Origin: Frankiales bacterium
Lineage (GTDB): Bacteria; Actinomycetota; Actinomycetes; JAWWOW01
Assembly (NCBI GenBank): GCA_033851265.1
Contig: JAWWOW010000025.1
Coordinates: 79,386-143,385, forward strand
Reading direction: 5' to 3'
Length of the DNA stretch: 64,000 nucleotides
Shown here: one piece after another, positions 28,678-52,159 of the stretch
How the letters are laid out: each line of letters starts with the position of its first letter
Numbering within the stretch: the stretch's first letter is position 1
Notes under the pieces: model-generated
What the model saw: only the letters and a program-made list of their open reading frames with translations
Told to the model about the DNA's origin: nothing
The model's database searches: none
Made by a program: the position numbers and the translations under genes

Positions 28678-28712
28678 TTGCGCAGCGTAGCCAGCAGCCG
28701 GGTCTCGTGGGG

Positions 28713-34134: not shown

Positions 34135-34208
34135 GGGGCAGTAGCTCAGCCGGTTAGAGCAGGGGACTCATAATCCCTGGGTCGCAGGTTCGAGTCCTGC
34201 CTGCCCCA
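34135..34208 (+). tRNA. tRNA-Met (anticodon CAT), elongator type; CCA not encoded
   Basis: Cloverleaf: acceptor GGGGCAG/CTGCCCC, D-arm GCTC-AGCCGGTTA-GAGC, anticodon arm GGGGA-CTCATAA-TCCCT, T-arm GCAGG-TTCGAGT-CCTGC, discriminator A. The 1:72 pair is G:C, and the anticodon-stem pair adjacent to the loop is A:T, so it is not an initiator. Confidence 0.9.
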
Positions 34209-34240
34209 CTAAGTGCCTGCCCCACTAAGCCCCCACCAAG
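34198..34240 (+). repeat. Tandem duplication (16 bp x ~2.7) of the tRNA-Met 3' end; att-like integration scar
   Basis: TGCCTGCCCCACTAAG occurs at 34198-34213 (overlapping the tRNA T-stem and acceptor 3' half) and is repeated exactly at 34214-34229, then partially (CCCCCACCAAG) at 34230-34240. Confidence 0.8.
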
Positions 34241-34593
34241 CGTTTCCGGGCGCTCGCCCACGGCGAGCCACTGACAACTCAGCAAATCGTTGAGCAGCTC
34301 CTACGGTCTCCATCGAGACCGTCCGTCGGAAGCTGGCCTCGCTGCCAGCGGTCAATGTCAGGCCAGGGGTGAGAGCCGTCGACGCTTCTCCCGCACACAT
34401 CGGGCGCGATAGCGCCTCTACGGCGCTGCCGCCTGCGCCCTGACGCGGCAAGGCAGTGTGTTGTTGGGTCCCGAAATTTAGGAGGTCAGGCGAGGTACCC
34501 GCCTGTTCGTCAGAGTTGACGGGGTGCTATCGGCGTGATCGCACCCTGATAATCGAACGGTCAAAGATTGCGCGTTCGTAGGGAGACTCGTAG

Positions 34594-35328
34594 ATGCTTG
34601 CAAGCCTGTTGCCCGGCCTGCGGGATATCCGGACTCCACTAACGGTTGGGTACCTCTACCTGCTACTCGGCTGGATTTGGTTCGCGGATGACATCCCACG
34701 GGCGAGGCCGAATGGCGATGGGCTAATTGCACGCCTCTTCGACCTTGGTGACGCTCTCGGCAGGCCGGCGGCGCTAGCAGCGCTGAGTTTCGTCGCTTAT
34801 GTACTGGGAGCGCTCCTGACAATCTCCTCGGAACGCGGGTTCGGCCGCTTAGTGCTCGACACACGGACACCTGCGATTGGCATCGACGCCAGACAGACTC
34901 GTTTTGAGATGTTCGAACGGCTTAGGGAGACTCACGGACGAATACTTGAGCACGCGAGTGGGTGGTCGCCCGAGCAGATGAGCCGATTGGATGATGAAAT
35001 CGGTCGTGCGCAAAACGCCAATGCCGCCGACCTGAGGACCCGACTTCTGGTTGCGAATCAGGAGCTCTATAGCGAGTACGACCGACTTGCGGCTGAAGCT
35101 GAGTTTCGACTGAACCTTGTTCTCCCGCTGCTAATGACCGGCATCACCGCATCCGCCGAGTTGTCGCTGTGGTACCTCCCCGCCTCAGCCGCCGTCGTAC
35201 TGCTACTTGCATTTCAAGGTTTGGCCCGCAGAGCTGAAGCGCAATCAGTGATTTCTCGTGCAGTCCTCTCGGGAACTATTCGACATCCGATGGAGACACT
35301 CCTGGCGCGCTTTGATGACGCCTCTTAG
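34594..35328 (+). CDS. Hypothetical membrane protein (TM helices at both ends), first gene of the lower-GC block
   Basis: A 244 aa ORF preceded by GGGAGA. There are hydrophobic segments at the N- and C-termini and a helical middle region. Confidence 0.45.
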   Translation: MLASLLPGLRDIRTPLTVGYLYLLLGWIWFADDIPRARPNGDGLIARLFDLGDALGRPAALAALSFVAYVLGALLTISSERGFGRLVLDTRTPAIGIDARQTRFEMFERLRETHGRILEHASGWSPEQMSRLDDEIGRAQNANAADLRTRLLVANQELYSEYDRLAAEAEFRLNLVLPLLMTGITASAELSLWYLPASAAVVLLLAFQGLARRAEAQSVISRAVLSGTIRHPMETLLARFDDAS

Positions 35329-35336
35329 AAGTGGCG

Positions 35337-36635
35337 TTAGTCCCAGTTCGGCGCGTGGTCATCGACGAACGCCTGTTCGCCCCAAACCGGGTCCTCGCCG
35401 GGAAAGCCCCGAGGCGGTTCAGGTCCATCGAACAGCCATTGATCAGGCGTAGGGCCAGCCGCACCAATGGCGAAGCACCAACCCGTGATCGTTCGTCGCC
35501 ATCCAAACCAAGCTTGACCACCCGTGCGTACCAGCATCTCCACGCCGTGCGGCTCGCTCAATCCGGAGGAACTGAAGTCCAACACCATCGCCAAGTCGGC
35601 CTTGTAGCGACCATCGTTGTTGTGCCGGCCCATTTGACAAACAGCTAGCCATCTCAGCGCCGCCTGCGTCTGAGTGAACTCGCGCCGATCAAGTTGTCGC
35701 CCTTGATCGTCTGTGCCTTGCACACGCGCAAGGTCACGAAGTCGGTTTGCGGCTGCGGTAGCGGCGTCTATCTCCTGCACTTGATGCTTGCGGAACGCCT
35801 TCACAACGCCGAGCGCGGCTCGGAGGGAATCCGTCTGCGCAACTTGGTACAGCCACGACCCGGCGAACGCTGACACCTTCCGTATCCGAAAACGCAGTCC
35901 CAGAACGACTGCGAGCTTCGCGCGGAGCCTCTGTGGTCGCGAGTCGTTACGGAACCCAATGCGCATAAATAGCTGCTCGTAGGCCGCGTAGAGACTGAAC
36001 GCATAGACGTATGGGATGACAGAAACGACCAACCAAACGGGCAGAGCTAGCTCTCGCAGGCTTTCGTGCTTGTCGAGCTCATGCCAATGCCGGGCAACAT
36101 GACTTGTGACATAGGCGAACAGGAGAAGTCCGGTCAGGGCTAGTAAGAAGTCTGCCACCCGCGCGACCAGGAGCGTCTCTTTGGTCCTGGCAGCGACCAC
36201 GCCAAGCAGGGTCACGAAGACCAGGATGGGCAGTAGAAGAAGTTCTGCTACCCGAGAAAGCACAACGAAGTTGAGGTAAAAGTCCAGCAACGCGGATACC
36301 TGCACGGCTCGGATCAGAGTTCGGCGAAAGTAATGTTCTTCTTTCATCGCCCTGTCGAGATTGACGAGGAACGTCAGCCCTGGGACGACGAACCAAAAGG
36401 CTGTGTCGGTCGCTTGGTTTAGGTCCCAAAGGTCGAGGGAGCGGGCAGCTAAGACCGCCCCTCCAACATTCGCGGCTAGCAACAACACCGGCACGATGAT
36501 CGTCGCGTTCGCTGTGATGCTTACAAACGAACGGATGGATGCTCGACCACTACGTGTTGTCATTACGCCAGCGACGACGACCAACAACCAGATCAGGAGC
36601 GCCTGCTGCCGATTGTTCGGCATGTCCCGTTGCAC
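35337..36635 (-). CDS. Polytopic membrane protein (~7 TM) with a ~150 aa C-terminal soluble domain; last gene of the putative nuclease operon
   Basis: A 432 aa ORF with strong TM periodicity in the N-terminal 280 aa and a Trp-rich C-terminal domain. It lies 93 bp downstream of the nuclease gene on the same strand. Confidence 0.5.
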   Translation of the reverse strand: MQRDMPNNRQQALLIWLLVVVAGVMTTRSGRASIRSFVSITANATIIVPVLLLAANVGGAVLAARSLDLWDLNQATDTAFWFVVPGLTFLVNLDRAMKEEHYFRRTLIRAVQVSALLDFYLNFVVLSRVAELLLLPILVFVTLLGVVAARTKETLLVARVADFLLALTGLLLFAYVTSHVARHWHELDKHESLRELALPVWLVVSVIPYVYAFSLYAAYEQLFMRIGFRNDSRPQRLRAKLAVVLGLRFRIRKVSAFAGSWLYQVAQTDSLRAALGVVKAFRKHQVQEIDAATAAANRLRDLARVQGTDDQGRQLDRREFTQTQAALRWLAVCQMGRHNNDGRYKADLAMVLDFSSSGLSEPHGVEMLVRTGGQAWFGWRRTITGWCFAIGAAGPTPDQWLFDGPEPPRGFPGEDPVWGEQAFVDDHAPNWD

Positions 36636-36728
36636 CCCCGGTAATTCATCAAAGGGCTGTTGCTGAAAAGGCTGTAGCGGAGCACTGACAGTTCCCCGGC
36701 ATCTCGCAAGGGAGATGCCTTGTGTGCG

Positions 36729-38452
36729 CTACGGACTTCCGAGCACCTCTTCGCCAGCGGTTGGGCCGTCGGTAGTACCAGACACCGCTGCCGCGTCGTC
36801 CTGTGATGACAATGCGGTGGAGACAAGCTCATTGGGGATGTTTGGCTCCGTGAGCTGTCCCGGCTCAGGCTGGCGCAGTTTGGGCGGTGCGGGTGACCAT
36901 CCCTTTACCGACTGGACAACGCCCTTGTAGAAGGAATCGAGCAGGTCCAGCACGGAACCCACGAATGACCCTTTGCCCTGTCCGCGCTTGCTGCCACTCG
37001 ACTTGGAAAGCGTGAGGGTGAAGGAACGTATCTCCCGCTTCTGCTCGTCCAGCAACAGCGACGGGTCCTCACGGACCTTGCGCAACAGGTCGGACCTGCT
37101 TGTTCCGCGCGACCAAGGTGTGAACGCGTCGATACGCAGATCATCAGGGGCGTCTTTCAACTGGCGCAGCAACCAGTTGATACGCGTTAGCGGTCGTCCC
37201 TCTTTGGGAGCGTCCACCGACAGTGACGCCGAGACCTGTCCGGCCCGCAGATCGGCGGTCAGCACGACAGGACCAACGGTGTTGGGAACTCGTAGAGAGC
37301 CCGTGAGCGTGCCCTTGCTCACCAGCGATGTCATCTGTTCTTGCATCCGCGAACCCGGATTTGCTAGGTCACGGCGTGACAGCGCAGGCAGCACCTCGAT
37401 GCCCAGTTGGCGTCCGAGACGCATCCCCGCGTAGCGCACGAGCTGCTCCCACTTCGCAGCAACTTCGGTAACGCCCTTGTCGGTCGCACGGACAGTTCCC
37501 GCACTGATGGCGTCGCGCACGGTCACCCACGACGTGCCCATGTCATCGAAATCGACAAGCCCGGACTTCGGATGTTCCAGATACCGGATGAATTCGGAAA
37601 GGATGTATGCCTGGTCAGGATCGCTCACCGAACTGTTGACCTTGTGCATAATCGCTTCGGTGTGAATCTGACTCCACGACAAATGATGCAGCGCAACCTT
37701 GCGCAGCTTCCGCTTGTCCACCGCCGTGGGATGCACACCGCTGGCCGTTGGTATCTCATTGGATATTGAGAGCAGCGCATTGAACCCCTGCTCGCGTGCC
37801 ACGTCGAGGTAGCACTCCAATTGCTCAGCACGGAGGTCGTTCTTTCCGGTCTTCACCTCAACCAGCGCAACCCATGAACGCTGGCCGCGCGTTACGCGGA
37901 TAAGGCCGTCTGGGTAGACCCGCTTGCCGTTCAGATCGAACGGCACCTCGATGAACGTCTCGATAGTCCCGGCAGGGGCATCCAGGCGTGCGGTCACCGA
38001 CTTGCCGAACTCCCGAACCGCGCTCAGCACGGCCAGTAGCGCCGACGTGCCGCGTCTCTCCTGCTCATCAGCGCCCGAGATGCCCGTGGTCGGGATCAGG
38101 CGTGCTGCGTGCCAACTTTCCTCTGCCACCGCGTCTCCCCGTGCTGCCAGTCCGTCGCGTAACGGCGACCGTAGACCGAAAGGTCTCCATTGAGCACGTG
38201 GGCAGGTCAGCCAGTCCGTCTGCAACGTCGCGTACGTTCCGTTCGGGTCGAGCCGACGAAAGCCGACTCGGTGCCGATCTGGCGGATCACCCACTGCGCG
38301 ACTGTTGCGGCGACTGGCATATCGCTGGTCGAAGACATTGAAGCCGACAGCTACGAGCGGGAAGGCAGCTGGCAGTTGCTGGTCATCTGGCAGTGCGTGG
38401 TCAATCGGCCACGCATGGTCGTTGTGCGCAGGTTGCCGATGAACGTGCATGT
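36729..38452 (-). CDS. RecB/Cas4-like PD-(D/E)xK nuclease-domain protein (~574 aa) with extra N- and C-terminal domains; start uncertain
   Basis: A complete RecB-family motif set is present: motif I E (TIETFIEVPFD), motif II D (YPDGLIRV), motif III ExK (WVALVEVKTGKN) and a QxxxY motif (RAEQLECY). The conserved N-terminal segment is WHAARLIPTTGISGADEQERRGTSALLAVL. The ATG at 38452 was chosen; the maximal ORF extends to 38603. Confidence 0.6.
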
Positions 38453-38572
38453 GGAACGGCGGTGTGCGTGAGCGAAACACCGAAACGCACGCCTGAGAGC
38501 GCCAGTTCGCCTCCGCGTCGGTCTGTTCGCGGCGAGACCATAAGGAGTAGTCGTCGCTGCCTTGAACGCGTG

Positions 38573-39514
38573 CTACTCGCCCGTGTGACGGGACGCAACC
38601 CACCCGGCCCCAGCGGCTGCCAGTAGGGCAAGCATCGCGGGCGCGAACTCTCGTGCTGCTAGTAAGACGATGCCGATTAGCAGCATGACGAATAGCAGGT
38701 ACCGCGCACGCCCTCCAATCACCGCCCCCGCTTCATCGTCAACCGACCTGCTGGCCACGGCTGCCGGGACCAGCACTTGCGCTGACGCCGGGACAGCCGT
38801 CTGACGCTCCCGTGTTGACGATTTAGATGCCTGACCTCCTGGTCGATTGAGCATCAGCACGAGAACAACAGCCCAGGACCACAACATCAATAGCGCAGTC
38901 GCCGCACACCAAACGGCGGTCGTCGTGCTGCTTTCCAGTTCTGAGACCGTTGGTGGCAACGAGTTATCGCCGCCAGGGATGTGAGAAAACGCTTGCAGGA
39001 TCACGACGACGATGTAGAGGACCCACCAACCATTGAGCAAGGCGCGTCGAAGCCCGCGCACTCGACCCGACTCTGATTCCCACAACTCGATCATCGCTCG
39101 CCGAGCCATCGCATAGCCGTACACCGGAATGAAGGGCGAGCGGGCAAGGCGACGTTGTGACTTCGGAGCACGTGCTGCTCCTTGTGACACGTACAACCAA
39201 CGGAAGAATAGAAGCAGGGAGACGAACGAAAGCAAGCCAGCGATGTCGAGAAAGTCACTTGCGACGACCAGCGCGTGGGGCTTAGGAACTCCGCCGTACT
39301 CGGAGTTGTTGCAGAGAATGGTCAGCACAGCGTCCGGGTTCTGACATGCCTCACTGATGGGTCCTATTCGTGAGCGGCCATCCAGTGCGTCGAGGTCATG
39401 GAGACCAGCCACGCCATTGGCGGCACTGACCAGGTAGCAAACAGCACACCCGACCAGACAAACCCATAAGACGAGGGGCAATCGTGAACGCCCTTGGCTC
39501 GCCATGACACCCAT
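38573..39514 (-). CDS. Membrane protein (4-5 TM), first gene of the putative nuclease operon
   Basis: A 313 aa ORF with hydrophobic helices (LPLVLWVCLVGCAVCYLV..., WWVLYIVVVILQAF..., AVWCAATALLMLWSWAVVLVLML..., YLLFVMLLIGIVLLAA...). It lies ~120 bp upstream of the nuclease gene on the same strand. Confidence 0.5.
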   Translation of the reverse strand: MGVMASQGRSRLPLVLWVCLVGCAVCYLVSAANGVAGLHDLDALDGRSRIGPISEACQNPDAVLTILCNNSEYGGVPKPHALVVASDFLDIAGLLSFVSLLLFFRWLYVSQGAARAPKSQRRLARSPFIPVYGYAMARRAMIELWESESGRVRGLRRALLNGWWVLYIVVVILQAFSHIPGGDNSLPPTVSELESSTTTAVWCAATALLMLWSWAVVLVLMLNRPGGQASKSSTRERQTAVPASAQVLVPAAVASRSVDDEAGAVIGGRARYLLFVMLLIGIVLLAAREFAPAMLALLAAAGAGWVASRHTGE

Positions 39515-39537
39515 GATGGTGGGAAGGTGAGTGGTTT

Positions 39538-40203
39538 ATGAAGCTTGATCAGAAGGCTGCTGATCGCCTGGTCGCCATGCTCGCGAAGGCGGACGACCTG
39601 CTGAAGACGTACAAGAGCCCTCCTTCGAACTTCATTGGATTCGAGGGGTGGGTAGATAGCGAGTTGTTCGCTGAGTGGCGAGCGCAGAGTCTCGTTCTGC
39701 TTCGCCAGTCACTCGGCCGAGAGCATCAGTACACGCGGTCCTTTCAAGAGGGAACGGAGAAGGAGAGCGTGCCGAGCTCAGTCCGGCACGGAATAGGGAT
39801 ACTCCGAGCAGCTTCGGAGGACCTGTCCAACGGCTATCTGTTCGAAGCCCGATCCCTCATCGAGGCTGAGGTCTTCGATGACTTCTTGCAGATGGCGCAA
39901 CATCTCAACCAGCAGGGATACAAGGATCCGGCCGCATCCTTGGCAGGAGCAGTACTCGAGGACGGCCTTCGCCGCATCGCCACAGGCCACGAAGTGCCAT
40001 TCTCAAAGTCAGACGGCCTTGACGCGTTGAACAAGGCGATTGCCAGCCATGGGATTTATAACAAGCTGACCCAGTCGAAGGTGGACTCGTGGAGAGTCAT
40101 CCGCAATGCGGCTGATCATGGCAACTTCGGGGAATACGGCACCGAGGACGTGACCGCCCTTATCGAAGGAGTCGTCGACCTGCTTGGCCGCCATCTAGTG
40201 TGA
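39538..40203 (+). CDS. HEPN-motif protein (DUF4145/Abi-like, predicted RNase), divergent from the nuclease operon
   Basis: A 221 aa soluble helical protein, preceded by GGAAGG, carrying the Rx4-6H HEPN motif near the C-terminus (WRVIRNAADHG). Its local GC of ~60% (counted over 39538-39600) is lower than the backbone. Confidence 0.5.
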   Translation: MKLDQKAADRLVAMLAKADDLLKTYKSPPSNFIGFEGWVDSELFAEWRAQSLVLLRQSLGREHQYTRSFQEGTEKESVPSSVRHGIGILRAASEDLSNGYLFEARSLIEAEVFDDFLQMAQHLNQQGYKDPAASLAGAVLEDGLRRIATGHEVPFSKSDGLDALNKAIASHGIYNKLTQSKVDSWRVIRNAADHGNFGEYGTEDVTALIEGVVDLLGRHLV

Positions 40204-40310
40204 CGGACGTCGCCTGCGCACCATTCGGCGGCGCCGACTGCTTGAACTGCCCGCCGTCGGCGCTTTCAACTGTTGTTTGAACTGCAACGCGCGTCACTAC
40301 GATTGGCACC

Positions 40311-40958
40311 ATGACCGAGTCCGGCGCCTGGTCCGAACCACTGGCGGTCGGGACGTTTGTTCTCGCGCTAGCCACTCTGCTGTTGGTCCTAGTCACGGGT
40401 ATCCAGCTGCGCCTGGCGCGCCGCACAGCAAATCTGGCCATACGACCGCTGCTCGGGGAGGTACCCGAGCCGTTGGAGGCCGCCGACATCGAGAGCGTCA
40501 GCTTTGGCGCACCCGGGCGGAACCGCGAGGAATTGCGGGTCGGTGAATTTTTTCTCCGCCGCGGCGAAGACAGCGACGTCTTTCAGGTGTCTGTTTCTTT
40601 CCGCAACGTTGGCTCAGGCCCGGCAGTGATTCTGGGTGCTGGCACGGATCCGGCCGTCACCGCCAGTTGCAAGGTGTCCCGGATGTATGTGCCCACAGGA
40701 GAGAACGTACGCGTCAACGTTTCCGCACTCGTGACGGCCGGTGCTGAGGGCGCGAGGCATCTTGCAGACTGGCGTACAGAGGGCGGGGCGAACTTTACGA
40801 TTTTCATTACCTACGCCGATGTCGACGGATCTCAAACGATGACAACAAGGGCAGTGGTCCGCGAATACGCCGTCCATACTCCCTTCGTGGAACGTGTCGA
40901 AATCTGGCGGCCGGGCGCAAAGGAGCCGTACTTGGCCTCAGGTGAGTGGGGCGGCTAG
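40311..40958 (+). CDS. Membrane-anchored hypothetical protein (N-terminal TM plus a beta-rich extracytoplasmic domain)
   Basis: A 215 aa ORF with the TM helix VGTFVLALATLLLVLVTGIQL. Confidence 0.4.
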   Translation: MTESGAWSEPLAVGTFVLALATLLLVLVTGIQLRLARRTANLAIRPLLGEVPEPLEAADIESVSFGAPGRNREELRVGEFFLRRGEDSDVFQVSVSFRNVGSGPAVILGAGTDPAVTASCKVSRMYVPTGENVRVNVSALVTAGAEGARHLADWRTEGGANFTIFITYADVDGSQTMTTRAVVREYAVHTPFVERVEIWRPGAKEPYLASGEWGG

Positions 40959-41054
40959 CCGGCATATAAGTGGCGATAGCGAGCGTGCGTTCCGGCAATA
41001 TCGTGCGTTCCGTGATCCTGATTCGGAGCGCCGCCTGCCGCGCGGATGTAAGTC

Positions 41055-41339
41055 GTGACGAATCCATATCTCACTACGCTGTCCGGCGTGGGTCGCCTGA
41101 GCCGCGCCGACTGGGGCTGGATCATTGGCTCGCTCGGGCTCGGTCTCGTGATGACGATCTGGACGGGGGACTGGGGCATATGGCTGGAACCGCATTGGTG
41201 GATCGGTGCCGCTGTTACCTCCCTGCTTGGAGGTGTTCTCGCTTCTCTGCTACTCGTGCGTAAGGCGCGACGACGGGCGAAGCGACCATCCGCGCCGCCT
41301 GTTCCTCTGGCCGCGCCCCGTTGGCAGCGGCGCCGCTAA
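41055..41339 (+). CDS. Small membrane protein (2 TM, Trp-rich, basic C-terminal tail)
   Basis: A 94 aa ORF containing WGWIIGSLGLGLVMTIW...WWIGAAVTSLLGGVLASLLLV. Confidence 0.35.
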   Translation: MTNPYLTTLSGVGRLSRADWGWIIGSLGLGLVMTIWTGDWGIWLEPHWWIGAAVTSLLGGVLASLLLVRKARRRAKRPSAPPVPLAAPRWQRRR

Positions 41340-41773
41340 CCCGATGCAGTTTCGGTCCAGAAGTGGCGCTCTCACACGTGGGTCCCGGTGTTATCGAGCG
41401 GATTACCGCTCCCGTCGCGCGTGGCGGAGCATCGTGAAGGCAAGGGCAGCGAAGCCGCCGCTGAACAACGCACCGAGACCAGCTATCTCAGCTTGCTCCT
41501 AGTCTGTCCGGAGGACACCAATCAACGCCGCGACTAGCAAGAAGATGGCGAACGGGCCAGTCCACAACCATGACCATCGGAAGAGCCCTACCTGAAAGCG
41601 GACCGCAGCTTGCATTGCTCCGGTCAGTCGCGCCATGCCGCCCTGCTCCCGATTGATCGCAAGATCCTTGCATGACTTTCGTAAAGCGACCGCACGGTAA
41701 CTGCCGATCTGCGCGAGGGGACCGTTGTTAGGGACGGGGCTCAGCGAGTTCTTGCTCAGGGGAGAATCACAGC

Positions 41774-42049
41774 GTGAGTATGTCCGACTGGCTGGATCAT
41801 CGCCGGGGCAGGGTTGGCTTAGCAGCAAGCGTCTTCGGCGCTGGCATCGGCATTTTCGCCTCTGGCAATCGGCTACTGGGAACTCCGCTCATCGTTATGG
41901 GAGCGATCGGCACCCCCGTTGCCATTGGCAGCTACGTGCGTCACGCCCGCCGCGACGAAACCGATGAATCCAACGTGTTGTTTGGAGTCCCGGCGCCGAA
42001 TGCGACCAACACGGAGGACCCTCCGAGCCACGTAAGGCGGATTGATTAG
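41774..42049 (+). CDS. Small membrane protein (2 TM)
   Basis: A 91 aa ORF with hydrophobic segments LAASVFGAGIGIFA and LIVMGAIGTPVAIG. Confidence 0.3.
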   Translation: MSMSDWLDHRRGRVGLAASVFGAGIGIFASGNRLLGTPLIVMGAIGTPVAIGSYVRHARRDETDESNVLFGVPAPNATNTEDPPSHVRRID

Positions 42050-42465
42050 CCAGTCGCGAAGTGCCACTCCCGAGCACGGCGTCCGGCGGCCCCTTGCGGC
42101 CTGATTGCGTACCGTGGATCCCGTGTCAGGGTGGAACAGCGGCAACAAGAGGTTCTGGACGCGCCACCGTCGAAGTGTCCGCACCAGTCGGCAGCTCGCT
42201 CAGGAAGCCGTCGATCGGTTAGCGAAGGTCAAAGAGGACCTCACGGGGGACCCCCACGACGACACGGCACGTGACGTGCCCTACTTGAGGCAGACGATTG
42301 AGTCGGCCTCCGACCCTCAAGTGCAGCAGCAGGACCAAGCCCGCCGCACCCATGCGGGACAGCGGGAGCGCCGGATGGGACGCCTACGGGCGCGGAATCA
42401 GCGCGACCGGTAGGTGGCGTGAGCGTGCGAAGAGTGACTGACAAAACCACGCGTAGGCTTGCCGC

Positions 42466-43020
42466 GTGCGGGGGTGGCTGAGCGTGGCGTTGGTCACCGC
42501 TGTGCTCGTTAGCGGCTGCGCGAGCGACGGACATTCCACGTTGGCGATTCCCCGGCCCACACTGCCCGTGGGGTTACCGACGCCAGCCGTGACGCTGCCC
42601 AGCGGAACGCCGACCGTGCTCCCCACCAGCCGTCCGACGATCACCGTCACGCGGCCCAAGTATCACGTCAGCCTGGCGACCTTCGCGGGCGGCTGGACGG
42701 CTCACACACGTTTCCTTCGCATCAGTCGGGCCGGTGTCGGCAAAGAGTGGGTGGATGACGGGTGCTGCCACCACGAGTTCCACCTCACCTTTGAGCTCTC
42801 GCGGGTCTGGGGGTCACCAGACAACGCGATCGCCGAGTTTGTGATCACAGCGTTCACGCCTGGTGAGCCGGGCTACTTCGACGCCCAACACCCTGCTCCA
42901 CGCGTCGGGCAGAAGGGGCAACTCCGGGTGCGCGAGCACACCATCGTGGAAACGGCCACGGACACACGGTTCTGCTCAGACGGGCACGCGTTACCCCAGC
43001 CAAACGTCTGCGGCGTCTAA
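42466..43020 (+). CDS. Lipoprotein of unknown function
   Basis: Lipobox LVSGC followed by a Pro/Thr-rich linker and a Cys-containing beta domain. Confidence 0.5.
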   Translation: MRGWLSVALVTAVLVSGCASDGHSTLAIPRPTLPVGLPTPAVTLPSGTPTVLPTSRPTITVTRPKYHVSLATFAGGWTAHTRFLRISRAGVGKEWVDDGCCHHEFHLTFELSRVWGSPDNAIAEFVITAFTPGEPGYFDAQHPAPRVGQKGQLRVREHTIVETATDTRFCSDGHALPQPNVCGV

Positions 43021-43154
43021 CTGGCGTGTGATGCAGGAGGGGTCGGCCGATTTATAGGTGATGCTCCCGCACATGGGTTGCGGTGTTATCGATCGGGTCT
43101 TGCCGGCGAATTCGCCACCTGCATTGGGATCCCACCGTTATGAGTCGAGCAGGG

Positions 43155-43200
43155 CTCATTAATTGACGCGTTAATCCGTCATCCGTTAGTGACAATGGCC
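43155..43200 (+). promoter_or_regulatory. AT-rich promoter/operator-like element immediately upstream of a probably leaderless GTG start
   Basis: CTCATTAATTGACGCGTTAATCCGTCATCCGTTAGTGACAATGG is a local AT-rich island in ~70% GC DNA containing a near-palindrome around ACGCGT. A -10-like GACAAT lies ~7 bp before the GTG at 43203. Confidence 0.3.
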
Positions 43201-43202
43201 GT

Positions 43203-43796
43203 GTGCAGGACCCGCTAGCTCCTTACTGGGACCCGATGCCCGACGTCTTGTCTTCGCGCGGTATTCCGATCCCCGGGGGTCCACCTTGGTGGCGAGGCCA
43301 GCTGCCCGACCCTGCCGAGTACTTGCGCGGAAGTTGGGCGGAACGTAATTGGCGCAATGTGCCAGGTCCGCTCTACGGGGCCATGACCGACACGTGCTGG
43401 GCTTCTCGGCAGTTTGCGCCGCATCACATTTCCTACGAGAACGAGACCGGTCAGGAGTTCTTGTACAGGCAGCCACGGTCGCGTGGCGAGGTGCTTGGAG
43501 TGCTACTGGGAGCTCGGAACGATCCGTATGACGGATGGAGCTCAGACGGTGATGAGCATTGGACACCCGAACTAGTCCGGTCCTGGTGGCGGGATCGCGG
43601 TCGCCTTGTTGAATGGATCGAGAGAGATCTTCAGGTGTGGTCGGCGGGTAACGGAGAGGAACGGGACGCCGCCGCAGGCCTGGTCGAGTACGCCGCCTAC
43701 CTCGACGGTGAACTCGAGACGCACCTGCGCGGATACGTCTTCTGGCTAATGGAGCGCCGAACGCCGCGCGCAGACGACAAACTGCCAGGCCTCTAG
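43203..43796 (+). CDS. Trp-rich hypothetical protein
   Basis: A 197 aa ORF with a GTG start; no recognisable catalytic motif. Confidence 0.45.
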   Translation: MQDPLAPYWDPMPDVLSSRGIPIPGGPPWWRGQLPDPAEYLRGSWAERNWRNVPGPLYGAMTDTCWASRQFAPHHISYENETGQEFLYRQPRSRGEVLGVLLGARNDPYDGWSSDGDEHWTPELVRSWWRDRGRLVEWIERDLQVWSAGNGEERDAAAGLVEYAAYLDGELETHLRGYVFWLMERRTPRADDKLPGL

Positions 43797-43942
43797 TCGA
43801 TGGGGCTCACAAACCGCGGCGGCGTTCTATGACGTGCTGAAGTGCCGTTCCAGTTCGCTGATAATTGCGTGATTCCCGATGACTCCCCGGCGTTCTCGAG
43901 CGCACGATTCGGTATTCTGACCGTCAGTGAAAGCATGCGGAA

Positions 43943-44446
43943 GTGCCAAAGCTCGGCCTGTGCATCTCGTCCGCAGTTCTCATCGGGTCCCTGTCCGGAT
44001 GTAGCGGGGGCACTGTCGCGGACGATTCCACCAGCGTGCCCTCCGGGGCGATCTGTGAACTCATCAAGACAGCACGAGTCGCCAGCAGTCTCAAGGTTCC
44101 GGTGTCGAGAGTGGGTTCGTGCCTCGAGACCGATGTGACACCAGATCGATCAGGTCGTTGGCCGATTCAGGCCCCGCCCTTTGAGCTGGCGCTGGTCTCG
44201 GTGAATCCCGACCCAACCCGTCATAGGTACTACGACAACGTGGACAAGCATTCGTCGGATTACAAGAGCGTATTGGTCAGCGGCACCTCGTGTGCCCAAC
44301 AGGTCGATCGCGGACACAACCTCTACTGCTACGACGAGAAGACGAAGATGACGGTGCATGTGCAGGTGGTGGGAGATGCAGACGTTTCTGCCATGACCCT
44401 CGCGCTGGCATCTGCGGCTCTTCCCGTGGTTCTGCCGGGAGCCTAG
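43943..44446 (+). CDS. Lipoprotein of unknown function
   Basis: Lipobox LSGC-SGG; 4 additional Cys. Confidence 0.5.
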   Translation: MPKLGLCISSAVLIGSLSGCSGGTVADDSTSVPSGAICELIKTARVASSLKVPVSRVGSCLETDVTPDRSGRWPIQAPPFELALVSVNPDPTRHRYYDNVDKHSSDYKSVLVSGTSCAQQVDRGHNLYCYDEKTKMTVHVQVVGDADVSAMTLALASAALPVVLPGA

Positions 44447-44467
44447 GGCGGTTGCGCTCGGACCCGC

Positions 44468-44896
44468 TCAGGGATGATCCGGGACAACGACAGGGCGACC
44501 CCACGTCCGGCACCGGTCAGAAGCAATGTCCAGCCCGGCGTGGAGGGAGTCGGTCTCATTGCCGATGCTCGTCCCCCCCTCCTTCAGGACGTTGCTGATG
44601 TCACGCACGTCAGCAACCAATCGGGTCAACGCCTCAGTGAGATCGCCCGTCGAGTTCGTCGCATCCTTTTGGAATTCGTCCGCGATGCTGCCGAAGCCGA
44701 GCCCGAGAATGAACGCCGCGTACTTGCCTGACTTCACCAGTCGGTACTGGTCGTCGATGCCCTCCATGTGCGTAGCCAGCCGCGCGCACGCTGCCTGGTT
44801 GAGCCGCACGTCTGCCGGGTTCTTAGTTGGGGATGGTGTCCCCGCTGGCGAGGATGAGCCACACGCCGCGGCTGTTGTGACGAGTAGACCAATCAC
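44468..44896 (-). CDS. Lipoprotein of unknown function
   Basis: Lipobox TAAAC-GSS; 142 aa, helical. Confidence 0.5.
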   Translation of the reverse strand: MIGLLVTTAAACGSSSPAGTPSPTKNPADVRLNQAACARLATHMEGIDDQYRLVKSGKYAAFILGLGFGSIADEFQKDATNSTGDLTEALTRLVADVRDISNVLKEGGTSIGNETDSLHAGLDIASDRCRTWGRPVVVPDHP

Positions 44897-44971
44897 GCAT
44901 CCACGAGCGATGTGCCACCCAGCGGCAGACGCTACGCCCCCAAGGGGGCGGCCGACAGGCGGGAAACGCGT

Positions 44972-46420
44972 TCAGGTGGTGCGGCTGCAGGACGTAACGA
45001 GCTGCCGCAACGTGCGCTGTATCGAGGGACTGTGAAGTGTGGCTCTAGTCGATCCGAGCAGCGTTGGTGTTGGCAACGACCGGACCAGACCGGTGGCGGC
45101 GCACCGGGCGACGGCGGGTGCGGTGCCGTCCACGATCAGTTCGGCTCCGGCTGTGGAGCGCAGCGCCGGCAGGGCCAGCAGGTCACCATCGCTGGAGCGG
45201 GGGTCAGCCGTCGGGGCATCGCACGACTCAAAATGAACCCCTTCGGAATACGCGCTGATCTTGGCGGTCGCAGCGGGGACGGCCCGCCGCCACCGTTCCA
45301 GCGCGGTCTCAATCGCACGCGTGTTCGCGGGAGTGTCTCCGGCAAGCGTCATCCGCGCGCAGGTCGCTTCATCACGCTTGAAGACCTCGAAGGTGTCGCC
45401 GCCCCACCCGTCTGCGGCCTGAAACGCCTGCTTGGCATCGATGCGCTGCCCAAGCATCAGATAGAGCATCAGCGCACCGAAGTCAGCACGCTGCCCGGGA
45501 ATCGGGACGTCGTTTTCCTCAAACGCGACGGGTTCGATGTAGGACGCGCCCTCATCATCCAGATAACGCCAAGGATCGAAAATCTGCGCGTGGGTTCGTG
45601 GTGGGTTGCGCAACACGCCGTCTCGCCCGATCTCAGGCTTCCCTGTGGCGACGATTTCGATCAGCGGGGGGCCGAGGACATAGGGACTGTCGAATAGCGA
45701 CTCCAGGACGGCGGGCACGGTCGGTTGCGCGTCTCGGTTGCTGTTGTCGTCGTCCGTGACAGCTTGTTGCTCCGATTCACTGAGCGTTCCGAGGTATGCG
45801 CGTTCGACGAGTGTGGCGTCGCCCTCAAGTACGGCCGTAAGGCCCGCGATCTGTCCGTTCGTCGCGTCCTCGTCTAGCCCGTCACCTGTGGGGTGCTGGT
45901 CCTGCCAGACGTGCGTCAACTCATGAACGAGCGTCACGCGCACACCCGGTGTCAGGAACCTGCCGCGTAAACGGACGCGGTTGTCCCGAGGGGCGTAGTA
46001 CCCGACTAAGCCTTCGCCATAAAGGATCCTCAACTGACTCTGCAGGTCCTCACGCATCAGTCCGAGCGCTTGGAAGACCGCCGCAGTTCGTTCCAGTTCT
46101 TCCTGCTCGTGACTCCCGCGTTCCGGGAGGAACGCGTTGCGGGCCTGCTTGCGGAAATCACCGTCGCTGAGCAGGTCAACGTGGACGGGGCGGATGAACT
46201 TGCCGTGCTTCTGCTGTTCCACGAACGCCACCAACGGCGCAATCCGGGCGTCCCACTTGTCGGGGAATCTGCCCTCCGGCCATTTGACAACGATGACCAC
46301 GACGCTTGTGCAGAGCAGCGCGATTACCAGCGCGAAGCGCACGATGCGCCGTCGTCCTGATCGGCGCGCAGCGGAATCGACCGAGGCGAGAAGCTCCGAC
46401 CAAGCTTCGGACACGGCTAC
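44972..46420 (-). CDS. Membrane-anchored putative zinc metallopeptidase (HExxH) of unknown family
   Basis: An N-terminal TM (IVRFALVIALLCTSVVVIVV) is followed by an extracytoplasmic domain with VTLVHELTHVWQDQH (HExxH). The start was set near 46414-46420, coupled to the upstream small gene; the maximal ORF reaches 46534. Confidence 0.55.
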   Translation of the reverse strand, partial: VAVSEAWSELLASVDSAARRSGRRRIVRFALVIALLCTSVVVIVVKWPEGRFPDKWDARIAPLVAFVEQQKHGKFIRPVHVDLLSDGDFRKQARNAFLPERGSHEQEELERTAAVFQALGLMREDLQSQLRILYGEGLVGYYAPRDNRVRLRGRFLTPGVRVTLVHELTHVWQDQHPTGDGLDEDATNGQIAGLTAVLEGDATLVERAYLGTLSESEQQAVTDDDNSNRDAQPTVPAVLESLFDSPYVLGPPLIEIVATGKPEIGRDGVLRNPPRTHAQIFDPWRYLDDEGASYIEPVAFEENDVPIPGQRADFGALMLYLMLGQRIDAKQAFQAADGWGGDTFEVFKRDEATCARMTLAGDTPANTRAIETALERWRRAVPAATAKISAYSEGVHFESCDAPTADPRSSDGDLLALPALRSTAGAELIVDGTAPAVARCAATGLVRSLPTPTLLGSTRATLHSPSIQRTLRQLVTSCSRTT

Positions 46421-46752
46421 CGGGAGTCCCTTTCGATTCGGCGAGCCTCTTGCTCCGCCTCCTCCACCTCCGGTGACCTCAGCACCGCCTCGAAACCCTC
46501 TCTGGTCGCCATGTTCACCGGCTGGCCGAGCCACGCGTACGCGGCAATGAACGCGACTGTCGAGTCAAGAACGGCGAGCGCGTAGATGAGCCGCCAATGG
46601 TCCGCGCGTAAGGCGAACACCCACAGTCCGACGTTCATGGTAAGCAAGATCGTCACGATCAGGAGCCGACGTCTCAATCCGGGAGCCCATTCCCCTCGCA
46701 CGCAGCAAGTATCTCGCCAAGTGCGCAGGGCTTCGACCACACCAGCAATCAT
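46417..46752 (-). CDS. Small membrane protein (2 TM plus a cytoplasmic tail), translationally coupled to the HExxH protein gene
   Basis: A 111 aa ORF containing LLIVTILLTMNVGLWVFAL...LIYALAVLDSTVAFIAAYAWL. Confidence 0.45.
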   Translation of the reverse strand: MIAGVVEALRTWRDTCCVRGEWAPGLRRRLLIVTILLTMNVGLWVFALRADHWRLIYALAVLDSTVAFIAAYAWLGQPVNMATREGFEAVLRSPEVEEAEQEARRIERDSR

Positions 46753-46987
46753 GTCGAGGTCAAGGCACGAGAACGCCGGTCACCGCATGCGGCTGATGTT
46801 TGACGTTGGGCCTTCGGCTGAATTCTTGACGCTCCCTCGGCTGCCTGGACGCAACTTTTGGCTTCGCAGCGGGTCCAGAGCAGAGGACTGGAGAAGGGGC
46901 AGGGACGGCGAGGGGTCCGGAGTCAGGAGGAACCAAAGTCGCGATGACGAACCTCTTCATGACGTAGCGCGTCAGAGAGGGGACCCC

Positions 46988-48241
46988 ATGCGAACCGTCC
47001 GAGTGCTCATCGCTGCCGCGTTGGTTGCGCTGCTGGCGTCGTCGGCAGCGGCCAACCCTTACGGGACGGCGAGGACGCCGCGACCGACCGTGCCAATCGG
47101 TTTCGCCGTGAGCACCGCGACCGTCGTCGACGCTCCAACGTCGCTGGCGTTCGCGCCTGACGGCCGCACGCTCTACGTCGCCACTGCGATCAGCGAAGTA
47201 TGGGCGTTCCCCGTCATCGCCGGCGGACGTGCGCTCGGTGCGCCACGCGTCTTCCTGGGCAACCTCGACCAGCCGTTAGGTGTGCTCGCCACATCGCAGG
47301 GCGTGTTCGTTTCGGAGCACATGACTGACTCTGACCCGGCGCTGGGTCAGGTCCTCCGAGCTGTTGACCGTGACGGCAACGGAAAGGCCGACTCGGTCAC
47401 CACTGTGCTGAGCCATCTGCCGGTCGGCATCCACGCAACCAACGGGTTGGCGCTGGGCCGGGACGGCATGCTCTACATCGCGAACGGCAGCTCGAATTAC
47501 ACCGGCTTTGGCGCCGAGGGCGGCCCGCCGATGACCCGGCCGTACTCCGGCAGCATCCTGCGCGTCCCACCGTCGGCATCCAATCTCCGACCGACGCCGA
47601 GCATGGTGGTGGCGACCGGGTTCCGGAACCCGTACGACATTGCCTTCTTCCCGCGCAACCATCCTGCGGTGAACCCAGGCCAGGACCTGGCCGCCGTGAC
47701 GATGAACGGACCCGACGGCGGCACGTACGACGGCCACTACCGGCCGCTCGGTGAGGACACGCTCAGCGTCTTCGACGTCGCGAACGCCCCCAACGGACCA
47801 GGTCCCGTCGAGCATTTCGGTTTTCCGTTCTGCCTCTACGACCGGGCGAAGGGCGGCCTGAGCGGTTTCACTCAGGCGCCCGAACGCGGACCGTGCAACC
47901 CGCTACCGACCAAGGCGTACGCCGGTATCCCCGGCCCTGCAGTGCAGGCGAAGCCGTCCGTCCTGTTCGGCATGAATGTCAGCTCCGACGGGCTGGCCTT
48001 CAACAACGGTAAGAACTTCCCTCGCGCTTACGACAATGACTTGTTCGTCGCGGAGTGGGGAACAGCCGGCACGCGCGGGCACAAGGTCGTGCGCGTCCGG
48101 TATGACAAGGCGGGCACGGTCGCATCCGTCAACGACTTCATGTCCGGCGTACTCCCGCTCGATCTCACGTTCGCGCCCGACGGCGCGCTGTGGGTCGCGG
48201 ACATGGCCGGTCAGATCTACCGGGTCGCCACGATCCGCTAG
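46988..48241 (+). CDS. Secreted beta-propeller protein, PQQ-dependent sugar dehydrogenase (SGDH)-like
   Basis: Signal peptide MRTVRVLIAAALVALLASSAAA, plus repeated propeller blades (LAFAPDGRTLYVA, GLALGRDGMLYIANG, LTFAPDGALWVADMAGQIYRV). Confidence 0.6.
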   Translation: MRTVRVLIAAALVALLASSAAANPYGTARTPRPTVPIGFAVSTATVVDAPTSLAFAPDGRTLYVATAISEVWAFPVIAGGRALGAPRVFLGNLDQPLGVLATSQGVFVSEHMTDSDPALGQVLRAVDRDGNGKADSVTTVLSHLPVGIHATNGLALGRDGMLYIANGSSNYTGFGAEGGPPMTRPYSGSILRVPPSASNLRPTPSMVVATGFRNPYDIAFFPRNHPAVNPGQDLAAVTMNGPDGGTYDGHYRPLGEDTLSVFDVANAPNGPGPVEHFGFPFCLYDRAKGGLSGFTQAPERGPCNPLPTKAYAGIPGPAVQAKPSVLFGMNVSSDGLAFNNGKNFPRAYDNDLFVAEWGTAGTRGHKVVRVRYDKAGTVASVNDFMSGVLPLDLTFAPDGALWVADMAGQIYRVATIR

Positions 48242-48242
48242 C

Positions 48243-49130
48243 TCAGCTCTCGGGGACCTCGGTGTCCAAGCAGGCGATGAGCGTGTCGATCGCGGCCGTC
48301 TTACAGAACGCGACCTTCGCGACATCGCCGGTGAACTGATCGGTGTTGTACCGCTGTCCAGGTAACGGGTACTTGTTCGCGACGCTGAGGTATTGCGACG
48401 ACGTCATCGAGCCGGGACGTGTGATGAGGAACGTGTTCACCGTCGTCACGTTGCCGTTGACCGCGTCGAGCTTCGTGGTCTGAAGCGTGAGCGTCGCCTG
48501 GCCCGTCAGCGGGTCCGGACCCTTGAAGCACTTCACGGCGTACGTCGCGCCGTTGACCAGCGCCTGAGTCCCACGCTTGGGCAGGTCGGAGTTTGTCGAG
48601 TTGGCGCCGACCATGCGGCACTCGGTGAACACCGCAGTCTTACTGCCGGCACAGCTGGACAGTTGCATCTTCAACTGGGTGAGCCCGCTACCGAACCGGC
48701 CGATCTGCGCAACGTTGTGGGAGTCGCCGAAGCAAGCGCCACTGGTCGGAGCTTCATAGCGGAACTTGACCGCGCCACCGACGGCGTCGCTTGCCGCAGC
48801 GGACAGCGTCGGACCGCTCGCGGGCTTCGCGAAGGCGACCGATCGTTTGGAGACCTTGTCGCCGATGAAGTGCACGCCGACGGTCGATGGCGCCCAGGCG
48901 CCGAAGAGACTGAGACGTACGGCGCTGTTCGCTTCGGCGCCGTTGGCCACCGGTGTGGTGGTGACGCCGGTGAGGTCGTAGCTATAGACGCTGCCCACGG
49001 TGGGCGCCGCCGAACTTGATCCCGCTAAGAACGGAACGAGCGGGGAAACGGAAACGAGGGCGACGATGACGGCTCCGCGTCGCAGTCGTACTGCTCGCTG
49101 AGCCACGACCATCACCCCCGTTTTCCGCAC
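48243..49130 (-). CDS. Secreted hypothetical protein (Cys-containing beta-rich domain)
   Basis: A signal peptide (…VIVALVSVSPLVPFLAGSSSAAP) is followed by a Thr/Gly-rich domain with 6 Cys. Confidence 0.5.
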   Translation of the reverse strand: MRKTGVMVVAQRAVRLRRGAVIVALVSVSPLVPFLAGSSSAAPTVGSVYSYDLTGVTTTPVANGAEANSAVRLSLFGAWAPSTVGVHFIGDKVSKRSVAFAKPASGPTLSAAASDAVGGAVKFRYEAPTSGACFGDSHNVAQIGRFGSGLTQLKMQLSSCAGSKTAVFTECRMVGANSTNSDLPKRGTQALVNGATYAVKCFKGPDPLTGQATLTLQTTKLDAVNGNVTTVNTFLITRPGSMTSSQYLSVANKYPLPGQRYNTDQFTGDVAKVAFCKTAAIDTLIACLDTEVPES

Positions 49131-49322
49131 CGTATCTGGTTGCTGCGGGTGGAGTTGGCCAATCAGATAATCGGCCCTGTTGTTGGCAGAGTGATTGGTG
49201 GGACATTCTTCTCGACCGCCTTGATGGTGCGGTTCACGTTCTGGCCCAATGGCACGTCCGATGCCTCACCGCCGTTCCCCGTCTTGCCGTGCGCGAAGTT
49301 AGCGCCACCTAGGATCGAATTG

Positions 49323-50150
49323 ATGTCGAGTGACCGCCACGGCTTGCAACGGCGCCGCCGTAGGACCGCGACCGGGACGATCCTTGCCGTCCTCGCTGTC
49401 ATCGCTGCGTTGGTGCTGTCCTATGTGATCGTCGGGCACGGCAAGCCGAAGAGCGGTGTGCCGCGAGCGGCAGCGCCGGCGTCAGTGGTGTCGGCAGTGA
49501 CCGGCGTACCGGTCTCGGCGCTCGACTCCATCGGAGCCGGCAAGGCCGAGGCCGACCCCGCCGATCTCACCGGGCAGAACCTGCCGTCCGGGGGTAAGCC
49601 GCAAGTGCTCTACATCGGCGCCGAGTGGTGCCCGTTCTGCGCGGCTGAGCGGTGGCCGATGGTGATCGCACTGGCGCGCTTCGGGTCCTTCTCCGGTCTT
49701 GCCACGACGGAGTCGAGCCCGAGCGACAGCTATCCACGTACGCCGACGTTCACCTTCTACGGCGCGACGTACACGAGTCAGTACCTCGATTTCGTCGCGC
49801 GCGAGGCGTACTCGAACCAAGTCGTGAACGGTCAGTACGCGTTGCTCGACCGGTTGACCTCGACCGAGAAGTCGTTGTTCGCCAAGGGCGGTGGGGGCTT
49901 CCCCTATCTGAACGTCGGGGGCAAGTATCGCGTCGGAGTGCAGTACTCGCCCGACGTCCTCAAGGGCAAGACGCTCGAGCAAATTGCGGCCGCGCTGTCC
50001 GACCCTGCGAATCCGATCGCCAAAGCGATTGACGGGTCGGCCAACATCCTGACCGCGGCGCTGTGCGCAATAACCGGTGAACAGCCGGCGGCTGTCTGCA
50101 GCAGTCCAACGATCACAGGTCTGAAGAAACGCGTCGGTGCCAAGAACTGA
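49323..50150 (+). CDS. DUF929-like membrane-anchored thioredoxin-fold protein (DsbA-like partner of VKOR)
   Basis: An N-terminal TM (ILAVLAVIAALVLSYVIV) is followed by the thioredoxin-like active site EWCPFCAAERW (CxxC). Confidence 0.7.
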   Translation: MSSDRHGLQRRRRRTATGTILAVLAVIAALVLSYVIVGHGKPKSGVPRAAAPASVVSAVTGVPVSALDSIGAGKAEADPADLTGQNLPSGGKPQVLYIGAEWCPFCAAERWPMVIALARFGSFSGLATTESSPSDSYPRTPTFTFYGATYTSQYLDFVAREAYSNQVVNGQYALLDRLTSTEKSLFAKGGGGFPYLNVGGKYRVGVQYSPDVLKGKTLEQIAAALSDPANPIAKAIDGSANILTAALCAITGEQPAAVCSSPTITGLKKRVGAKN

Positions 50151-50625: not shown

Positions 50626-50634
50626 TGGGCTGTC

Positions 50635-50925
50635 ATGGAACTCACGCTCCGGTTCACGTTCGACGATCCGACGGCCAAGCGGCAGCGCACCTTCACGCTT
50701 GACGTCGACCGCCCCTATCCCGGCATCCCACGCGTCGGCGAGGCCGTCGTGCCCGACAAGGCCGGCCAGCTGGCGCCGCGACGAGTCAGTCGGGTCGTCT
50801 ACAACCCGGACGGCACGCTGATCCTCGATCTCGACCTCGACGCACCCGCGGACAACCCGGAGGCGCAGGTCATGGCCCTCGAGACTGTCGGCTTCGAAGA
50901 GCAAGACCCGATCAAGCTCCTCTGA
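50635..50925 (+). CDS. Small hypothetical protein
   Basis: A 96 aa ORF immediately after the VKOR gene. Confidence 0.35.
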   Translation: MELTLRFTFDDPTAKRQRTFTLDVDRPYPGIPRVGEAVVPDKAGQLAPRRVSRVVYNPDGTLILDLDLDAPADNPEAQVMALETVGFEEQDPIKLL

Positions 50926-52152: not shown

Positions 52153-52159
52153 GACGACC

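Follow-up and report, generated by a model that had tools for sequence, protein, structure and literature searches.

The 64-kb stretch of DNA analyzed here (the window) is part of the 192-kb metagenome contig Ga0467035_0000054 (JGI 3300044720), and its proteins are present at NCBI as 'MAG: Frankiales bacterium' (MAG, metagenome-assembled genome) with QOG53_36xx locus tags. The subject of the analysis is a 12.4-kb island (34230–46585) of lowered GC content that begins just downstream of a tRNA-Met gene (CAT, elongator type; 34135–34208, + strand; identified by ARAGORN and with an Rfam tRNA score of 73.6 bits), which forms its left border. The island possesses 15–16 open reading frames (ORFs), among them genes for a predicted nuclease and for a HEPN-domain protein; seven products have predicted transmembrane (TM) segments, three have lipoboxes and one has a HELTH motif, which broadly is the inventory described in an earlier note on this DNA (the original prediction). 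The GC content is 0.668 at positions 1–34134, 0.618 within the island and 0.652 at positions 46586–64000. The fall in GC content described in that note is real and is accompanied by a shift in codon usage, but amounts to ~5 points rather than to the ~10 points that were claimed (70% to 60%). The GC content at third codon positions (GC3) is 0.61–0.72 for ORFs in the island versus 0.79–0.88 for convincing genes outside it (Mann-Whitney p = 0.001). Thus, the island is unlike its flanks in both GC content and GC3, as is characteristic of genomic islands. The left edge is sharp: a gene for an M36 peptidase with a GC3 of 0.85 is followed by the tRNA gene and then by a gene with a GC3 of 0.61, such that the drop occurs within ~550 bp. 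The right edge is gradual, with GC3 moving from 0.72 to 0.79. Internally, the GC content is 0.607 at 34230–42100, 0.660 at 42100–43020 and 0.629 at 43021–46585, and there are two exceptions to the low GC3 values, an ORF at 42105–42413 (0.78) and a lipoprotein gene at 42466–43020 (0.80). This host-like patch at 42.1–43.0 kb suggests that the island is a mosaic that was produced by more than one event.

At its 3′ end, the tRNA-Met gene is marked by two exact copies of TGCCTGCCCCACTAAG in tandem (34198–34213 and 34214–34229, + strand), which were evident by direct reading and in a repeat search. The first copy comprises the final 11 nt of the tRNA (the 3′ acceptor strand) and 5 nt beyond. A second, independent assembly (Logan, SRR24887414) was used for comparison: its contig L002 corresponds to window positions 34165–50203 with 100% identity and includes the 16-bp tandem duplication. 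The duplication therefore was correctly recognized in the original prediction. However, its description there as the classic footprint of site-specific integration was not sustained, since such a footprint consists of a direct repeat at the distal end of an element, which is missing here. Moreover, a tandem duplication with zero spacing cannot be produced by integrase-mediated excision. The 16-bp duplication is ambiguous and may have originated by replication slippage or in an illegitimate event. When viral contigs were searched with the 22-mer from the tRNA-Met gene's 3′ end, the sole match was at positions 1247–1380 of one contig (L131), where it is part of a phage tRNA array; the tRNA-like match is split by an insert and was not called by ARAGORN. 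This match was set aside as irrelevant to the island.

The predicted nuclease is encoded on the minus strand at 36729–38129 and was taken as a protein of 466 amino acids rather than as the product of a 624-aa extended ORF. The extension runs across a 443-bp gap upstream of the nuclease gene (38130–38572) which contains no convincing gene, and it has no support from homologues. The protein had been noted as a RecB-like nuclease, and modeling supports a nuclease fold: it is predicted to consist of an N-terminal PD-(D/E)xK domain, a helical middle section, and a C-terminal domain resembling YbjN and type III secretion system chaperones. Residues P73-D74, E91-V92-K93, and Q103 and Y107 of a QxxxY motif are invariant in an alignment of 25 sequences. 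In the AlphaFold model (pLDDT 82.9) the restriction endonuclease-like alpha-beta-beta-beta-alpha-beta core is present, and the invariant residues are located at the canonical positions on strands 75–81 and 84–92 and on helix 101–114. The PD-(D/E)xK active site is complete, and the predicted activity is that of a Mg2+-dependent DNA endonuclease. It belongs to a family of >3900 homologues that are mostly actinobacterial and uncharacterized; the family lacks a Pfam model, and no experimental characterization was found in the literature. The best 120 of these homologues are 58–73% identical to the protein and cover more than one actinobacterial class, with sequences from Acidimicrobiia, Jiangella, Mycobacteriales and Frankiaceae; none of the 120 has a Pfam domain and some are named 'stress response protein'.

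Searches with tblastn revealed that plasmids of Rhodococcus and Streptomyces encode paralogues of ~680 aa, which are annotated as 'TerD family protein'. In these proteins TerD occupies residues 1–172, and the remaining ~420 residues are 37–43% identical to the 466-aa protein. The possibility that a TerD remnant persists upstream of the nuclease gene was considered and rejected: the 624-aa extended ORF has no Pfam match to TerD (PF02342) and no similarity upstream of its residue 161. Thus, as the paralogues share the portion that is not TerD and no TerD is present here, the 466-aa protein represents a TerD-linked nuclease module in a form without TerD. Its PD-(D/E)xK and C-terminal domain architecture matches that of the TerD 'stress response' proteins, but both it and its >3900 closest relatives are wholly devoid of the TerD domain. 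Ter-dependent stress and anti-phage systems have been described (Anantharaman et al., 2012, cited by both PMC3710099 and PMC7159879); unlike these systems, the 466-aa gene has no ter operon genes nearby. In the fused plasmid paralogues the TerD domain presumably acts as a sensor that gates the nuclease.

A second protein of interest, of 221 aa, is encoded on the plus strand at 39538–40203 and is a lone HEPN-domain protein that is extended at its N terminus by helices. The original prediction had recognized a HEPN motif, and both the motif and, from the structural model, the HEPN fold are borne out. The Rx4H motif is R189-N-A-A-D-H194, in which R189, A192, D193 and H194, together with G195, are invariant in 31 homologues from a total of 412 that are distributed across several phyla. 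Among the 31, 20 match the HEPN family PF05168 (best E 8e-9) and three match DUF4145, whereas the window protein itself has no match at E ≤ 0.1. The AlphaFold2 model has a pLDDT of 91.8, and its top Foldseek matches are HepT/HEPN toxins with a probability of ~1.0 but with E-values of only 0.07–1. The protein shares with HEPN toxins (HepT of MntA-HepT, and the DUF4145-like clade; Anantharaman et al., 2013; PMC3710099) the four-helix fold, the invariant Rx4H motif, homologues that match PF05168 and PF13643, and the occurrence of its family on plasmids and integrative elements. It differs from them in possessing an additional N-terminal helical domain of ~100 aa and in its position beneath the Pfam thresholds. 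In contrast to MntA-HepT, it lacks an adjacent MNT antitoxin or other partner: no MNT gene is located next to the HEPN gene, whose neighbors encode a DUF4328 protein and a 215-aa TM protein, or in the loci of its homologues. Homologues with 60–70% identity reside as solitary genes in elements that possess an integrase, Replic_Relax and TrwB as well as an excisionase-like gene of the HTH_17 type. As judged from its modeled fold and its motif, the 221-aa protein is a candidate RNase toxin or abortive infection-type effector.

Whether the island genes travel together was assessed in eleven distinct neighborhoods of homologues of the nuclease, the HEPN protein, and the 428-aa and 244-aa products of the island. 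When every island protein was compared with each homologue locus by tblastn, a second island gene was never found in any of the eleven neighborhoods, and the annotated neighbors differed in every context. The nuclease family, with eight contexts, illustrates this diversity. Homologues are located among housekeeping-like genes on the Jiangella mangrovi chromosome; next to an intein-bearing ribonucleotide reductase; next to Pnkp-Hen1; between genes for ECF sigma factors; with acetyltransferase genes and trpD in a Frankiaceae MAG; and on a Streptomyces plasmid. On a soil contig that is present in many samples, short prokaryotic Argonaute (pAgo) and SIR2-APAZ genes are on one side of the homologue and ParE/PhD on the other, with transposases near; the homologue is a few kilobases from the pAgo and SIR2-APAZ genes (L039, 230–3568 and 8001–9380). 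On the Rhodococcus plasmid pRZP3 (L132, 6251–13148), the homologue is 1 kb from a type II cyclic oligonucleotide-based anti-phage signaling system (CBASS) that consists of cyclase, E1-E2, JAB and the NucC effector. A RES toxin gene and the ParE/PhD pair also are close to the pAgo- and CBASS-linked homologues. Within the island itself, genes occur on both strands, some convergent and others divergent, with gaps of 93–443 bp between them. Neither ten island proteins nor the TerD-fused paralogue had a match in PADLOC (PADLOC-DB v2, E ≤ 0.01). Thus, the absence of co-occurrence, the mixed strands and the sizeable gaps indicate that the island is not a conserved multi-gene system but a collection of singletons, and the proposal that it is a candidate home for a novel system was not upheld, there being no co-occurrence and no PADLOC match.

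The position of nuclease homologues beside pAgo/SIR2-APAZ and CBASS elsewhere fits a reading of the family as a single-gene effector. It is conceivable, although this is offered tentatively, that the 466-aa family is a self-contained, stress- or phage-triggered DNA endonuclease, a widespread single-gene effector spread on mobile DNA of which the TerD fusions represent a ligand- or Ca2+-gated version. The neighboring lone HEPN protein then would be a second, independent effector. The nuclease family is large and highly conserved, with a fusion link to TerD stress and anti-phage biology and a neighborhood link to pAgo and CBASS, and either the nuclease or the HEPN gene could provide an inexpensive single-gene candidate for defense or stress screening with Streptomyces or Mycobacterium as the host.

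Several observations bear on the origin of the island. Plasmid homologues are known for five island proteins, namely the nuclease, the HEPN protein, and the 428-aa, 244-aa and 197-aa proteins. The best non-self matches of island genes are 73–74% identical, compared with 62% for M36 peptidase, 57% for DUF929 and 68% (full length) for the GSDH-like protein in the flanks. The nearest nuclease homologues (70–72% identity) have GC3 values of 0.69–0.73 versus 0.70 for the window copy, and are below the GC content of the host locus in two of three loci. Similarly, a HEPN homologue (L044) has a GC content of 0.58 in a locus of 0.69. The low GC content of the closest nuclease and HEPN homologues indicates that these genes move among soil actinobacteria as low-GC cargo. 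That flank genes have no closer matches than island genes, and that homologues are low-GC mobile cargo, were both counted in favor of a horizontal origin. Patches of foreign, uncharacterized genes adjacent to tRNA genes are common in actinobacteria, and the island as such is ordinary and reveals no new coherent system; it is useful in that it directs attention to the nuclease family and to the lone HEPN family.

Overall, the region at 34.2–46.6 kb appears on balance to have been acquired horizontally at a tRNA-Met hot spot and to be both mosaic and decayed. In Frankia, actinomycete integrative and conjugative elements (AICEs) integrate at the 3′ ends of tRNA genes, tRNA-Met included, and AICE remnants that lack tra or rep are on record (PMC3218068). 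The island resembles these tRNA-linked elements (Ghinet et al., 2011; PMC3218068) in its location directly 3′ of tRNA-Met, a documented Frankia AICE target, in its atypical composition and cargo of hypothetical genes, and in the presence of close homologues of its HEPN gene within integrase/Replic_Relax/TrwB elements. It is unlike them in that genes for an integrase, an excisionase, replication and transfer are missing, as is an attL/attR pair, and in that the sole att-type repeat in the window is the tandemly duplicated 16-mer at the end of the tRNA. One or more AICE-like or plasmid-type integrative elements may have inserted at the tRNA-Met 3′ end, with subsequent loss of the integrase, replication and transfer genes and of the distal att site. 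The cargo left over would be functionally unrelated singletons, which also are found alone elsewhere, and among which the 466-aa nuclease and the 221-aa HEPN protein may be self-contained stress or defense effectors. The suggestion of a decayed or domesticated mobile element with cargo thus stands in part: horizontally acquired cargo is likely, but a remnant of an integrative element is no more than plausible.

A number of results weigh against a horizontally acquired region. As originally stated, no integrase, excisionase or transposase is present: Pfam, NCBIfam and PHROGs scans of ORFs, a six-frame Pfam scan of intergenic DNA and scans of flank genes were negative, with no match to Phage_integrase, rve or Recombinase in the island ORFs, in the six-frame intergenic translations or in the flank genes within the window. 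An integrase or transposase pseudogene in the intergenic DNA was rejected on the basis of the same six-frame scan, which was empty. Rep, FtsK/TraB-like and type IV secretion system genes also were not detected in the island by Pfam, PHROGs or NCBIfam. A distal copy of TGCCTGCCCCACTAAG was not found in the 64-kb window with up to three mismatches permitted, in accord with the earlier remark that the right boundary has no second att copy, and neither a longer tRNA-derived repeat nor general direct or inverted att-type repeats were found in the window. As there is no distal att repeat, the integration history is deduced solely from the composition and location of the island. At 5 points the GC shift is modest, and the border on the right is diffuse. 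Searches of IMG/VR viral contigs revealed no relatives of the nuclease or of the HEPN protein, such that a phage origin for the two families was rejected and a plasmid or integrative element is a likelier source than a prophage. Several members of the nuclease family reside among housekeeping-like genes with host-like composition, the more distant copies in these contexts having GC3 values of 0.81–0.96, which indicates that the family is not strictly mobile or defensive. Finally, the genome, metagenome and protein collections yielded no syntenic relative. The nearest species-representative genomes are Jatrophihabitans MAGs in which flank proteins are 48–57% identical. A search of genome contigs with DUF929 gave relatives of ≤57% identity that share only the DUF929-VKOR pair; a metagenome search with M36 peptidase gave matches of ≤62% with no shared neighbors and no adjacent tRNA-Met; and a search of 5.8 billion proteins with the GSDH-like protein gave a best full-length match of 68% on a 2.9-kb contig with unrelated neighbors.

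An alternative is that the genes are native and vertically inherited, being weakly expressed, fast-evolving envelope or accessory genes whose low GC3 reflects relaxed codon selection, and that the proximity of the tRNA gene is coincidental. The lack of a mobility gene, of a remnant of one, or of a distal att site agrees with this explanation, as do the GC shift of only ~5 points that fades gradually on the right, and the many products that are membrane or secreted proteins. The M36, GSDH and DUF929-VKOR neighbors also are not conserved in the nearest relatives, which implies that the whole neighborhood is fluid. However, the change in GC3 from 0.85 to 0.61 takes place within ~550 bp and exactly at the tRNA's 3′ end, the closest homologues of the nuclease and HEPN protein belong to other lineages, where they are low-GC cargo of mobile elements, and the best matches of the flank genes are no closer than those of the island genes. 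Native origin is considered rather unlikely in view of these points. An assembly artefact also was weighed, in which a mis-join at tRNA-Met has united an M36 flank and an island with right flank that are not adjacent in real genomes. The ends of Logan contigs L047 and L002 are at window position 30648 in tRNA-Asn and at 34165–34170 in tRNA-Met, so that the joins across both tRNA genes have a single long contig as their sole support, and it is the termination of the SRR24887414 assembly inside tRNA-Met, with only one long contig across the junction, that favors a mis-join. Nevertheless, assembly breaks at tRNA genes are the expected outcome of k-mers that are common to several genomes, and breaks occur at both tRNAs; GC3 is alike on both flanks (0.79–0.88); and the Logan contig continues without a break, at 100% identity, from the tRNA across the island and into host-like DNA on the right. 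A mis-join therefore is judged very improbable. Were it real, the island would have a different left neighbor but its nature would be unaffected: because the Logan contig is continuous from the tRNA into the right flank, a low-GC block is located between tRNA-Met and host-like DNA in either case. The Logan breaks in tRNA-Met also were considered as a sign of an island-free variant, which was rejected since tRNA-Asn is broken likewise and the remainder is 100% identical.

The remaining alternative retains the idea of a single system: the island, or a core composed of the 428-aa, nuclease, DUF4328, HEPN and 215-aa genes, would be one unknown anti-phage system, perhaps co-regulated through an intergenic repeat. 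A nuclease, a HEPN RNase and membrane proteins indeed are encoded inside 5 kb, and the island-specific repeat is located downstream of four genes. In addition, DUF4145-type HEPN genes at times are coupled to TerD-dependent systems (PMC3710099), and the nuclease is in a TerD-linked family. Against this, no pair of island genes is together in the eleven distinct homologue contexts, the genes are arranged convergently and divergently on both strands with gaps of 93–443 bp, PADLOC gave no match, and the repeat has no structure and is found nowhere else. The lack of linkage largely refutes a single system, which accordingly is regarded as most improbable.

The genes of the island other than those for the nuclease and the HEPN protein encode envelope proteins (multi- and single-pass membrane proteins, three lipoproteins and the HExxH metallopeptidase) and do not form an operon-like system with the nucleases. 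When the ten larger ORFs were compared with Pfam, NCBIfam, PHROGs and PADLOC, the only matches were to DUF4328, to DUF6782 and, beneath the cut-off, to Hvo_1808. The earlier statement that the genes have no recognizable family thus was too strong in view of the DUF4328 and DUF6782/Hvo_1808-like matches, and most ORFs that were tested are in sizeable uncharacterized families. The first gene (34594–35328, +; GC3 0.61) specifies a 244-aa protein with two predicted TM segments and no family in ORF, Pfam and TM scans; its distant homologues, hypothetical genes on plasmids of Streptomyces, stand alone. It is followed by the gene for a 428-aa protein (35337–36623, −; GC3 0.66) whose N-terminal half has multiple TM segments and whose C-terminal half is soluble. 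The 428-aa family comprises 3162 cluster representatives at E ≤ 1e-3 with full-length matches, but is uncharacterized and lacks a Pfam model; the PHROGs and NCBIfam scans gave no more than a chance-level match for the protein, and homologues occur alone on Haladaptatus and Arcobacter plasmids. Beyond the nuclease gene, a DUF4328 membrane protein (38573–39328, −; Pfam PF14219, E 3.4e-8, and TM scan) is 251 aa long in the JGI call, the ORF being open to 39514 (313 aa). The HEPN gene is succeeded by genes for a 215-aa protein with one N-terminal TM segment and no family (40311–40958, +), for small membrane ORFs of 94 aa (41055–41339, +), called in the Logan assembly only, and 91 aa (41774–42049, +), and for the host-like patch, which consists of the 102-aa ORF (42105–42413, +) and a predicted lipoprotein of 184 aa (42466–43020, +). 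A 197-aa soluble protein (43203–43796, +) has homologues with 44–47% identity on Streptomyces, Embleya and Kitasatospora plasmids. Predicted lipoproteins of 167 aa (43943–44446, +) and 142 aa (44468–44896, −) precede the final gene, which encodes a 480-aa membrane-anchored putative metallopeptidase (44972–46414, −; DUF6782/DUF8575, Hvo_1808-like) with HELTH at residue 164. This protein resembles the Hvo_1808/DUF6782 proteins in its HExxH motif, N-terminal membrane anchor and above-threshold DUF6782 match (PF20573, E 1.1e-8), and has homologues on haloarchaeal plasmids. It is unlike Hvo_1808 in that it scored 79 bits against the NCBIfam Hvo_1808_fam model, far under the cut-off of 200 bits, and is only 26–27% identical to haloarchaeal members. 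Scans for promoter and terminator consensus sequences gave nothing above shuffled expectation.

The intergenic repeat is 45–54 nt long and is present in four copies in the island only, being absent from other DNA in the window and from all homologue loci that were compared. Each copy is 2–58 nt downstream of a stop codon on the same strand. Three are on the plus strand, at 40960–41013 (2 nt past the stop codon of the 215-aa gene), 41353–41406 (14 nt past that of the 94-aa ORF) and 43048–43101 (28 nt past that of the 184-aa lipoprotein gene). The fourth is on the minus strand at 38473–38515, 58 nt past the DUF4328 stop codon, within the 38130–38572 gap (nhmmer E 7e-8). Folding of single copies produced z-scores of +0.4 to +0.6, and the consensus fold of −4 kcal/mol has no covariation support. 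Structured RNA, terminator and attC identities were rejected because the repeat lacks an Rfam match, a significant fold and covariation, and is not hairpin-like. It also was rejected as coding sequence, the differences between copies not being concentrated at codon position 3. An integron-like cassette array likewise was discarded, there being no attC-type imperfect hairpin and no IntI integrase.

The flanks of the island contain ordinary genes, including those for dnaG, a sigma-70 factor, S8 and M36 peptidases, a DUF7133/GSDH-like protein, DUF929-VKOR, a type IB topoisomerase and an mce operon. Between the sigma-70 and S8 peptidase genes, at 26800–28700, the GC content falls a second time but to a lesser extent (0.623 at 26–27 kb), and three small ORFs (27150–27620, 27691–28221 and 28237–28677) without a Pfam family match are located there. 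The DUF929-VKOR pair (49140–50625) is the sole part of the right flank that is common to other genomes (loci L014, L015, L021–L026 and L032). Homologues of the pair with 39–44% identity are in MAGs labeled Micrarchaeota, Saccharibacteria, Bacillota and Sulfolobus, a spread that suggests either horizontal transfer of the pair or mis-binned contigs. Further to the right are a bacterial type IB topoisomerase gene (53894–54952) and a yrbE/mce operon (55067–63717; MlaE/MlaD, Mce4_CUP1) of at least eight genes, four of which were scanned against Pfam.

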